Source: Escherichia coli O127:H6 str. E2348/69 (GTDB lineage Bacteria > Pseudomonadota > Gammaproteobacteria > Enterobacterales > Enterobacteriaceae). Taken from it: a stretch of DNA of 64,000 bases. Made by a program: the position numbers. Position 1 is the stretch's first letter; the number at the start of each line of letters is the position of its first letter. Location: assembly GCF_000026545.1 (NCBI RefSeq), contig NC_011601.1; one strand, given 5' to 3'. Positions 9,001 through 12,000 of the stretch are shown one piece after another.

Positions 9001-12000
9001 GCCCAAGTAAAATATTTATATATCAACTTTCTTCAGACCTGCTGAGTGTAAAGCAAGCAACTATTCCAGAGGCACTAAATGATATACGTGTTAACGATAT
9101 ATCCGGCCTGGCCTTTAATAATGAAAGTCTGATGATTCTGTCCGATGAATCGCGTAAATTACTCAAGTTTAACCTGACAGAGATGTCTTTCATTGAGATG
9201 CTTGACCTGACAAAAGGAAATCATTCTCTGACCAGTGATTTGCCCCAACCTGAAGGAATTGTAACTCTGCCTGATGAAAGCATTTATGTTGCCAGTGAAC
9301 CTGATATCCTCGCGAAATTTGTCCCTAATAAGTAAGTCTGTCACTGGCCTTATTATTTATCGACCAAATCTGGCAATCTCATAAAGTTATAAAAATACGA
9401 GTATAATTTCACGCTAAATAAACACATTAATAGCTGAAAAGGACATCAGCTATTATCAACCAGAATCTTACTCAGTCTATTAGGATTATCAGACTTATAT
9501 TAGATCCTACAATATATTTAATTTGTATGCAGAATAGAGTGTTCACACCACATCTGGTATAGAAAAGCACAGGCTAGCAAAAACCTGAATAACCCCGTAC
9601 TTACGGAGTTATTCAGGTTAAAAATATCCATAACATCACTTCTGATTTTTATTGCTTACGACGGATATAATTTCTCTGGTCAGCTACTAATATCATCATG
9701 CTCACGCGTTTAATCAAACTCGTGTTTCTCAAACGGACATCGCGGGACAATCTTCTGCTTCTCCCGGCGCATTTTTACCACCTTCGCTACCTGCATTTTG
9801 AGCGGAAGATCCGCTTTTTTCTGGCCCCCGCACATATGCAAGTCCAGTTTTAAATTTATCCTTTATTTCATTCTGAAACAAACTGCTCATAATTTTCTCC
9901 AGTGGAACCTGCATCTCAGGGAGACATCACTACAGAATACTTCCCCTTATGCACTGATTTAATTTTGGTCATTTAGAATAACGGCCTGTAAAGGCTCAAT
10001 GCAACAGATGGGTAACGCTATTATGAGGATCCTCGTCAGTAAATTACTGGCAAGGCACTCCGATAAATAAGAATAGGTTCCGCAACAACGTTATATGCAA
10101 ATACCTCACGCTTCGGCTAGATTATCGCCGGCTCTGTTGACGAAATTATGGTTGAAATCTGGAGCTACCACACGTTGTTCTGGCTGGCGATAGGGATGTT
10201 GGGTATTGCAATGATTTGCTTGCTGTTTATTAAAGATATTTAGCTCACCAGTCTGGGCTAAGAAAAATCGGCGTGGCGCAAACTGAGCCATCCTCGCCAT
10301 TTTTGCTATCATGCCTGCATACATAAACGACAAAACAGTATGCAGAGGGAAAAATGGGTTCCACCAGAAAGGGGATGCTGAACGTTCTGATTGCCGCCGT
10401 GTTGTGGGGAAGTTCAGGGGTCTGCGCGCAATACATCATGGAGCAAAGCCAGATGTCGTCGCAGTTTTTGACTATGACGCGTTTGATATTCGCCGGTTTG
10501 ATTCTGCTGACGCTATCATTTGTTCATGGTGATAAAATCTTTTCTATTATTAACAATCACAAAGATGCCATTAGCCTACTGATTTTTTCCGTGGTTGGCG
10601 CGCTAACCGTACAGCTCACTTTTTTGCTAACCATCGAAAAATCGAACGCAGCCACGGCAACGGTGCTGCAATTCCTCTCACCGACTATTATCGTCGCCTG
10701 GTTCTCACTGGTGCGTAAATCCCGCCCGGGCATTCTGGTTTTCTGCGCTATTTTGACATCTCTGATCGGGACTTTTTTATTGGTGACACACGGTAATCCG
10801 ACGTCATTATCGATCTCTCCTGCCGCGTTATTCTGGGGCATTGCCTCGGCATTTGCTGCTGCATTCTATACCACCTATCCCTCAATGCTGATTGCCCGCT
10901 ATGGCACGTTACCGGTCGTCGGCTGGAGTATGCTCATTGGCGGTCTGATCTTGCTGCCCTTTTATGCCGGACAAGGGACAAATTTTGTCGTTAACGGAAG
11001 TTTGATTCTGGCGTTTTTTTATTTGGTGGTCATTGGTACGTCCCTGACATTTAGTCTGTACCTAAAAGGAGCACAATTAATTGGCGGTCCAAAAGCCAGC
11101 ATTTTAAGCTGTGCTGAACCATTAAGTAGCGCGCTGCTCTCTTTGCTGTTGCTGGGGATCACCTTCACATTGCCGGACTGGCTGGGAACGCTGCTGATTC
11201 TGTCATCGGTGATTTTGATTTCAATGGATTCCCGCCGCCGCGCCAGAAAAATAAATCGTCCGGCGCGGCATGAGTGAGAATTACCAGCCAGGCACCGCGC
11301 CACCGTTAAAGATGGTTTCTGCCGCTTTAGCGACTTCGGGTGATTGATAAGATTGCAGAAATTCCTTCACGTTTTCTGCATTCTTATTATCTTCCCGTGC
11401 CACCAGAATATTCACATACGGCGAATTTTTATCTTCAATAAATACGCTGTCGTTAACCGGAGAAAGTCCTGTTTGCTGGATGTAAGTGGTGCTGATAATC
11501 GCTACATCCACTTTCGGGTCGTCCAGTACACGTGGCAACTGTGCCCCTTCCAGCTCCATTATCTGCAAATGGCGTGGATTATCGGTTATATCCAACGCGG
11601 TAGGTAATAACCCTTTTCCCTCTTTCAGAGTAATTAGCTTCTCTTTTTGCAGCAGTAAAAGCGCGCGACCAAGGTTAGTCGGGTCGTTGGGGATCGCCAC
11701 TGTCGCACCTTCTTTTATTTGCGCCACGGTTTTGATTTTTTTGGAATAGCCCGCCATGGGGAAGACAAACGTATTTCCCACCGCTACCAGTTTATAACCA
11801 TGCGTCTGATTATCTTGTTCAAGAAAGGGTCGATGCTGGAAGACGTTCGCATCAAGCTCGCCATGATTTGTCGCATCGTTCGGTAGCAACGAACCGCTAA
11901 ATCCTACCAGTTCAACATCGAGGCCATATTTCTCTTTTGCTACCTTTTTAGCGACTTCCGCGACATCTTGTTCTGCGCCATTAATAACGCCAACTTTAAT

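Follow-up and report, generated by a model that had tools for sequence, protein, structure and literature searches.

Where does the enterocyte effacement locus (LEE) end and the chromosome begin in Escherichia coli O127:H6 str. E2348/69, and does the DNA between them encode anything? We addressed this in a window of 64,000 nucleotides (NC_011601.1, assembly GCF_000026545.1; one strand, 5' to 3', with position 1 as its first letter). The genes espG (7193-8389) and rorf1 are the final LEE genes here, and are followed by a spacer, yicL and nlpA. The spacer had been put at about 1 kb in an earlier reading made from the sequence alone (the sequence-only reading), and indeed runs from the end of rorf1 at 9335 to the start of yicL at 10354, a length of 1,018 bp. 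Our overall best explanation, which we consider probable, is that this spacer is a non-coding scar of nested recombination joints and not a set of small genes. From rorf1 to yicL it would consist of the LEE tail, a backbone piece from the end of yjdJ, the start of tssB with 120 bp of upstream DNA, and two pieces of setC. According to the alignments, every fragment is firmly identified, three of the four joints show microhomology, and the reading frame is not conserved.

The base composition of the spacer agreed with what had been described, being AT-rich on the rorf1 side (GC 0.33-0.34 over 9300-9699) and GC-balanced on the yicL side (0.40-0.47 over 9700-10399). The sequence-only reading had also described a LEE-chromosome junction lacking a tRNA, an integrase or an attachment repeat, with the tRNA at the far end of the island, and our searches bore this out. 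ARAGORN detected no tRNA in the whole 64-kb window, and no integrase is annotated between espG and yicL. The 3' end of selC (searched as a 24-mer with up to three mismatches and as a 16-mer with up to two) was absent from the whole window, as was any copy of the tRNA-Phe 3' end with two to three mismatches permitted. In E2348/69, tRNA-Sec (selC) adjoins espF at the island's other end, about 35.7 kb away. An integrase-made tRNA island junction (attR) was ruled out here, since there is neither a selC or tRNA-Phe 3'-end repeat nor a neighbouring tRNA or integrase. No Rfam family was found within the spacer.

The position of the boundary itself had to be revised. It had been placed near 9700, with the GC-balanced DNA beyond taken as chromosome. 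When aligned to LEE-free K-12, however, the window becomes colinear only from 10069, which corresponds to codon 338 of setC, with 96% identity onward. We further searched the spacer by megablast against 5,426 complete E. coli genomes. Matches were obtained in 4,290 of them, and coverage of at least 80% in only 383. The genomes that lack this type of LEE flank match the spacer only from 10069 or 10072 onward, and the stretch 9700-10010 is intact only in the 383. This stretch holds foreign yjdJ and tssB wreckage, and the true boundary lies 370 bp rightward of the estimate from base composition.

In K-12, setC is positioned between selC and yicL. By tblastn the 3' fragment of setC agreed with SetC at 52 of 57 residues and was interrupted by a stop, the in-frame TAG at 10118-10120. 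A second piece, joined directly to codon 338, emerged at 10011-10071 from a sensitive search. The 394-aa SetC open reading frame (ORF) is not intact, with codons 1-57 and 77-337 gone. Since codons 58-76 abut codon 338, both the first 57 codons of setC and about 780 bp from its interior have been lost. We considered whether the 5' piece might be of E. albertii type; this was rejected, as 53 of its 61 bases are those of K-12 and 44-45 of the 61 are those of E. albertii setC. Both pieces would belong to the resident setC, with about 780 bp deleted between them. The phage collection offered nothing for the spacer except a spurious setC match of 61 bp, present in two records of Campylobacter phages (A18a, MG065686.1; A11a, MG065691.1; 87% identity to the setC fragment). 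The setC-like stretch in these records is likely to come from E. coli DNA in the assemblies.

At the other end of the spacer, the LEE tail is shared with islands at other tRNA sites. O111:H8 was 98.8% identical to the window over 8501-9463 and 97.7% over the tail alone (9336-9463), after which its copy is interrupted by an insertion sequence. O103:H2 was 88.6% identical to the tail, with the similarity reaching 9491. A hairpin with a 10-bp stem lies inside the tail at 9428-9455.

Beyond the tail we observed the remains of yjdJ, which encodes a 90-aa GNAT acetyltransferase. Distant blastn aligned 9588-9781 to yjdJ at about 73-80% identity, and tblastn to YjdJ gave 30 of 40 residues identical (E 4e-18) with an internal stop. 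A deletion of 3 bp and a nonsense codon (TAA, 9710-9712) mark the remnant. An intact 90-aa yjdJ (Pfam Acetyltransf_CG) downstream of yjdI was not found; only the last 38 or so codons are left, and yjdI is absent. The homology extends past the gene, as the downstream 105 bp and a hairpin are homologous to those of E. albertii and of E. coli 7CC. E. albertii and E. coli 7CC differ at 34 sites in 9492-9679, and at 26 of these the window has the E. albertii base.

We searched for homologues of rorf1 and inspected the contigs that encode them. A cluster at about 82% identity proved to be the E. albertii rorf1, going by the NCBI labels. In the assemblies so labelled, the LEE with espG and rorf1 (and in some cases espS) is followed by an intact yjdJ-yjdI on the opposite strand and then by dcuS-dcuR-dcuB-fumB-yjdF-adiA. 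All E. albertii have their LEE at pheU (PMC4700944). The yjdJ backbone is 99.0-99.4% identical among the E. albertii-type assemblies and 88% identical to E. coli, which is, as sequence divergence goes, the level seen between species. In E. coli O8:H- 3431-4/86 the LEE is likewise at pheU beside yjdJ, with about 10 kb (lysU, yjdL, cadABC) missing (PMC3408504); in E. coli C5, some 10 kb separate yjdJ from cadC and the pheU island.

The remnants in O103:H2 and in Z1323CEC0015, a chicken strain with a divergent selC-type LEE, matched the E. albertii backbone at about 97.6% identity (97.1-97.9%) over 313-374 bp that take in non-coding DNA; to E. coli yjdJ they were 85-88% identical. At about 11% nucleotide difference, 56 of 57 residues translated from the O103:H2 piece are those of E. 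coli YjdJ, which has the pattern of a once-functional orthologue. The copy in E2348/69 is identical to that of O157:H7 and more worn than that of O103:H2, with 86-89% identity to E. albertii and 78-79% to E. coli. At 52 species-separating sites it carries the E. albertii base 39 times, the E. coli base 6 times and neither 7 times. At the level of alignment, the E. albertii-type nature and the colinearity of the yjdJ piece are well established. Since the remnant is of E. albertii type and colinear with the yjdJ that adjoins the LEE in those genomes, it would be a fossil of chromosome that travelled with the island. The E. albertii-type backbone piece at the rorf1 end of the selC LEEs and of O103:H2 would then be a physical record of a former address.

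The next piece comes from tssB, the gene for the small sheath subunit of the type VI secretion system (T6SS). Distant blastn aligned 9786-10010 to tssB and 120 bp of its upstream DNA at about 75-77% identity; the homology, upstream region included, covered 225 bp at 76.6-80.8% with E values down to 4e-54. The closest relatives were on an IncFIB/FII plasmid of Citrobacter sp. TSA-1 (80.8%) and in the pheU island of E. coli C5 (76.6%). The minus strand reads MSSLFQNEI (TssB 1-9), then, after an 8-bp deletion, TssB 11-36, and then YjdJ 53-90. An intact tssB would encode about 165 aa and have tssC behind it; here the coding sequence is down to about 105 bp, with yjdJ next. The -10 box upstream of tssB is broken by a 1-bp deletion (TATAAT in C5, TA-AAT here). 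Consistent with this mosaic, the Prokaryotic Genome Annotation Pipeline (PGAP) has GNAT, T6SS-sheath and MFS pseudogenes at this spot in Z1323CEC0015.

Searches for an intact source of this piece were negative within their scope. The exact pattern AAAATTAAATCAGTGCAYAAGGGG, a conserved block upstream of tssB, had no match in 100,044 species genomes. A TssB-based locus search of the same collection returned 80 Enterobacterales loci, of which none was above about 76% DNA identity and none had the upstream region or setC nearby. Separately, we observed on the TSA-1 plasmid (NZ_CP053574.1), along with its complete T6SS of 27 kb, a regulator of the PerC family and fimbrial genes of AF/R1- or F18-like type. 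The human isolate K12a (NZ_OZ259269.1) has another stranded tssB, of 447 bp and with the same upstream region, whose neighbours are an integrase fragment and a gene for a PerC-family regulator. It appears that islands repeatedly carry remnants of this T6SS family.

We then compared the four joints. At the TTATCA joint the E2348/69 and O157 lineage has lost about 1 kb that is kept in O103:H2 and in E. albertii-type genomes, and the right-hand TTATCA lies within REP-like (repetitive extragenic palindromic) sequence. The DNA between rorf1 and yjdJ in those genomes holds a gene of its own, an intact ORF of 291 aa in O103:H2 and a pseudogene in ML35 that PGAP names 'secretion protein EspS'; this espS-like ORF had no Pfam or NCBIfam match. 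At the tssB/yjdJ fusion, the DNA upstream of the joint is yjdJ in O103:H2 and E. albertii, and tssB in E2348/69, O157 and Z1323CEC0015. The tssB sequence reads ...CTCAAACTGCTGGTTGCCGG, the E. albertii-type yjdJ reads ...GGTAAACGGCTGGTGGCGAAGG and the fusion reads CTCAAAATGCTGGTGGCGAAGG; from this comparison, the crossover took place inside the 14-bp microhomology. As O103:H2 keeps yjdJ back to about codon 34, the fusion would be a later event in the selC lineage. The internal deletion of setC has a 2-3 nt AA(G/A) microhomology at 10068-10071, and no microhomology was identified at the joint of the tssB upstream region with setC (10010/10011). All four are thus, as judged from their sequences, deletion or illegitimate-recombination joints, three of them at short microhomologies. 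The rorf1 end of the selC LEE would therefore have been made by microhomology deletions and not by an integrase, which fits the lack of mobility of the E2348/69 island.

The sequence-only reading had pointed to two small ORFs in the spacer that it could not assign. Both exist. On the minus strand an ATG at 9890 opens 53 codons (61 from an ATG at 9914) with GGAG at 9897-9900, and on the plus strand a 31-codon ORF at 10148-10243 encodes the peptide that had been quoted. ORFs of this size are not unusual, as 61 of at least 25 aa were listed in the 5 kb around the spacer. Both could in fact be assigned. The minus-strand ORF starts at the tssB ATG (9888-9890), reads the first 9 tssB codons, and then, past the 8-bp deletion, continues out of frame into the dead yjdJ fragment. 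Its product differs between lineages in C-terminus and in length, reaching 53 aa in E2348/69, 60 aa in Z1323CEC0015 and, owing to an indel in a run of A, 80 aa in O157:H7. The plus-strand ORF is residues 364-394 of SetC in the pseudogene, begins at an internal Met, and is conserved solely as the setC tail. Neither ORF matched Pfam or NCBIfam. As far as sequence can tell, neither is a gene and both are by-products of the fragment wreckage. For gene finding the outcome is negative: two candidate genes in a much-studied virulence locus would be pseudogene debris.

The hairpin inherited from yjdJ (9582-9619) has a minimum free energy of -27.8 kcal/mol (z -5.6) and is followed on the minus strand by UUUUUGC. 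With a stable hairpin and a direct U run, it is a predicted intrinsic terminator; a simple terminator scanner missed it because stems are scored differently there. O103:H2 and E. coli 7CC have a homologous hairpin with an 11-bp stem. We observed that the stem has grown from 11 to 17 bp through private substitutions in the E2348/69 and O157 lineage (-25.6 versus -22.6 kcal/mol over the same 56-nt stretch). This lengthening could reflect chance, or selection for a stronger terminator facing rorf1. The hairpin is the one element of the spacer that may still be active, blocking minus-strand transcripts antisense to rorf1 and espG.

Other explanations of the spacer were weighed against the scar. 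A simple junction of two parts, in which island DNA extends to about 9700 and everything between that point and yicL is native chromosome, would account for the GC shift near 9700, but it has practically no chance of being correct, since the genomes free of this LEE flank align from 10069 or 10072 only and 9700-10010 is restricted to the 383 genomes. Alternatively, one or both ORFs could be real small-protein genes, encoding a 53-aa product with a GGAG site and a 31-aa hydrophobic membrane peptide. The minus-strand ORF does possess a start codon preceded at 7 nt by a Shine-Dalgarno sequence, a terminator follows it, PGAP predicts a 35-aa hypothetical protein at this spot in O157:H7, and the 31-aa peptide is hydrophobic. 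However, the ribosome binding site and the ATG belong to tssB, and the 8-bp deletion shifts the frame after 9 codons; the length varies with divergent tails across three lineages, there is no Pfam match, and the upstream -10 box is damaged. The 31-aa ORF, as the SetC tail, has no Shine-Dalgarno sequence at its internal Met and lies past the in-frame TAG. Genuine small proteins are thus extremely unlikely.

Another possibility is that the wreck has been reused, with the tssB leader and the yjdJ terminator forming a minus-strand unit, either a small RNA (sRNA) or an insulator that shields rorf1 and espG from antisense transcription. The hairpin is retained in every lineage, its stem is extended in E2348/69 and O157, and the U run follows it on the minus strand only. 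We nevertheless consider reuse unlikely. There is no Rfam match, the -10 element of the promoter is broken, promoter-like sites are at chance level (3 found, 2.8 expected), the transcribed part differs by 11-15% between lineages, and the longer stem could be chance among 14 private changes. The known LEE sRNA sRNA350 was also considered as spacer content and rejected, as it maps to the cesF 3' untranslated region. The yjdJ-like and tssB-like pieces might instead be unrelated to pheU and E. albertii, and stem from a plasmid or another island carrying yjdIJ-like and T6SS genes. Such a source is conceivable, as yjdI-yjdJ is present on Enterobacter hormaechei plasmids and the nearest tssB relative is plasmid-borne. 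Yet the yjdJ carried by Enterobacter plasmids reaches just 77-82% identity and has no downstream DNA in common, while the remnant, its downstream DNA and the REP remnant are colinear with rorf1-espS-yjdJ of E. albertii (97-98% in O103:H2 and Z1323CEC0015). A plasmid, or an integrative and conjugative element (ICE), as the source of tssB also fits the scar explanation, and we regard an origin of both pieces unrelated to E. albertii as very unlikely. We retain the explanation of a scar, and judge the locus, on present comparisons, to be non-functional, functionally ordinary and modestly informative on LEE history.

From these fragments we infer in which direction and by which route the LEE moved, the loss of a T6SS and any function that the terminator may retain, and the formation of the spacer can be proposed as follows. 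In genomes of E. albertii type the LEE lies between pheU and yjdJ, where rorf1 faces an intact yjdJ. The island, on entering E. coli and then pheV and selC, would have taken the end of yjdJ along, so that the second piece (the final 38 or so codons of yjdJ, its terminator and what remains of a REP) would derive from the pheU neighbourhood of an E. albertii-like genome. The selC lineage would have had a T6SS cluster, or an element bearing one, between the tail and setC, and a deletion between tssB and yjdJ would then have removed it, leaving the first 36 or so codons of a mobile tssB gene as the third piece.

The origin of the LEE in E. coli is debated, and pheU has been proposed as the ancestral site (PMC3408504). 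The yjdJ fossil may serve here as a directional marker, by which the tail-bearing E. coli LEEs would descend from the pheU/yjdJ LEE of an E. albertii-like genome. This would cover the selC types (E2348/69, O157:H7, O145) and the O103:H2 types; in other O103:H2 strains the LEE is placed at pheV by published typing. Entry into E. coli would have been by homologous recombination together with flanking backbone, as is visible in ML35. Later illegitimate recombination would have brought the LEE to pheV and selC, the latter through a T6SS-bearing plasmid or ICE of which the tssB leader is the trace. Taken jointly with its route, this descent is a tentative proposal that we hold to be possible and somewhat doubtful. 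The backbone piece also offers an easy marker, scorable in thousands of genomes by three features: the allele of the yjdJ remnant, the tssB/yjdJ joint and the TTATCA deletion.

In the genome labelled 'E. coli ML35' (NZ_CP025747.1, 4,449,000-4,506,000), we observed an E. albertii-type LEE with about 20 kb of backbone of the same type, from yjdJ to yjdN, at 87.5-89% identity to E. coli, set in a region that is otherwise of E. coli type. The identity climbs to 96.7-98.7% from mdtP onward. From its sequence, ML35 looks like a living intermediate, with an interspecies import of the LEE and flanking chromosome, a stretch that lacks the mel and phn operons.

Several observations weigh against this account of the spacer. 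The E2348/69/O157 copy of yjdJ is only 86-89% identical to E. albertii and has 14 private changes, so another Escherichia donor or fast decay could be involved. E2348/69 and Z1323CEC0015 are 99-100% identical in the tssB piece and only 85-89% identical in the adjoining yjdJ piece; therefore, recombination between LEEs has overwritten one copy, and this apparently blurs both how old the E2348/69 allele is and in what order the events took place. No tssB above 81% was found among the 80 species representatives, the E. coli genomes or the plasmids, no genome was found with an intact T6SS beside setC, and the E. albertii setC loci examined were without a T6SS. The tssB trace being the sole remainder, a T6SS between the LEE tail and setC is deduced from this remnant alone. 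Within rorf1 we also noted that E2348/69 and Z1323CEC0015 are 80% identical over 9001-9100 and 93-97% in the flanks, which suggests a small recombination patch.

Coordinates of the features in and around the rorf1-yicL spacer of E2348/69 (positions in the 64,000-nucleotide window)
Feature	Position	Strand	Evidence
rorf1, last LEE gene (SdiA-regulated / YjiK family)	8517-9335	+	Pfam PF06977, E 3.7e-53; RefSeq annotation
LEE tail, common to LEE islands at other tRNA sites	9336-9491		similarity to O111:H8 and O103:H2
Deletion joint at TTATCA hexamer	9486-9491		overlap of BLAST segments; O103:H2 insert flanked by TTATCA at either end
E. albertii-type intergenic DNA downstream of yjdJ (REP-like remnant and terminator region)	9492-9679	-	colinear with E. 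albertii-type loci and O103:H2
Predicted terminator hairpin inherited from yjdJ	9582-9619	-	17-bp stem, 4-nt loop, U run on minus strand
yjdJ 3' remnant (GNAT acetyltransferase), codons ~53-90	9680-9781	-	tblastn; alignments; PGAP GNAT pseudogene in Z1323CEC0015 and O103:H2
Minus-strand ORF, chance frame across the tssB/yjdJ fusion	9729-9914	-	length varies; no Pfam match; PGAP 'frameshifted hypothetical'
Fusion joint of tssB (5' side) and yjdJ (3' side), 14-bp microhomology AAACnGCTGGTnGC	9781-9794	-	comparison with O103:H2 and E. albertii
tssB 5' remnant (T6SS sheath small subunit), codons 1 to ~36	9786-9890	-	blastn; tblastn; PGAP pseudogene in Z1323CEC0015
tssB upstream region	9891-10010	-	alignable with tssB upstream DNA of C5, K12a and the Citrobacter plasmid
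setC 5' fragment, codons 58-76, ends in in-frame TAA	10011-10068	+	similarity to K-12; translation GNAIMRILVSKLLARHSDK and stop
setC 3' fragment, codons 338-394 and stop	10069-10243	+	96% to K-12; tblastn; PGAP 'MFS transporter' pseudogene
Native setC-yicL intergenic DNA (yicL promoter side)	10244-10353	+	colinear with K-12, one mismatch
yicL, first intact backbone gene	10354-11277	+	Pfam EamA, E 5.8e-42; annotation

The backbone to the right of the junction is also variable between strains: downstream of yicL comes a gene of glycoside hydrolase family 88/105 in RM14723 and Z1323CEC0015, and nlpA in E2348/69, O157 and K-12. Elsewhere in the window, Rfam matches at gathering score were AsdA (antisense RNA of dnaA mRNA) at 52463-52543 (+) and a ROSE_2 RNA thermometer at 35190-35262 (-); a match to the sRNA ES036/CssrF at 46950-46986 (+) was barely above the Rfam threshold.

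When we compared the locus with the conventional LEE of E2348/69, the two were the same locus, with DNA not found in K-12 running for about 35.7 kb from tRNA-Sec to position 10069 of the window. The 734-bp mosaic is therefore the outermost part of the conventional LEE, which is said, in accounts attributed to McDaniel 1995 and Elliott 1998, to be a 35.6 kb island at selC. The RefSeq labels for the mosaic in E2348/69 are only a 'hypothetical, frameshifted' coding sequence and an 'MFS transporter' pseudogene. We found no description of the spacer as fragments of yjdJ, tssB and setC in the open-access literature; the original LEE papers and the main comparative paper, which lie outside that scope, may hold parts of it.

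The T6SS-1 (Sci-1-like) clusters, with the order tssB-tssC-tssK-tssL-tagL-hcp-clpV-vgrG, are carried on mobile elements such as the C5 pheU island and the TSA-1 plasmid. The spacer is like them in the N-terminus of tssB and the 120 bp upstream, at 77-81% identity; unlike them, its remnant is frameshifted and has neither tssC nor any other T6SS gene. With the pheU LEE of E. albertii and O8:H- it shares the order of rorf1, tail, yjdJ terminator and yjdJ, in convergent arrangement, and the spacer alleles are of E. albertii type. However, in the pheU LEE yjdJ is intact and continues into yjdI-dcuSR, whereas in E2348/69 only codons ~53-90 are left, the espS region has been lost, and the remnant is found at selC, well away from the native yjdJ of the cell.

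The island selC-A of enteroaggregative E. coli 042 shares the chromosomal site, and there too the island is followed by setC, yicL and nlpA. That island is bounded by a 21-bp direct repeat of selC (PMC7058095), whereas the E2348/69 junction is without such a repeat. Unlike attR junctions, the joint in E2348/69 sits inside setC, and appears to have been made by deletion rather than by site-specific recombination.

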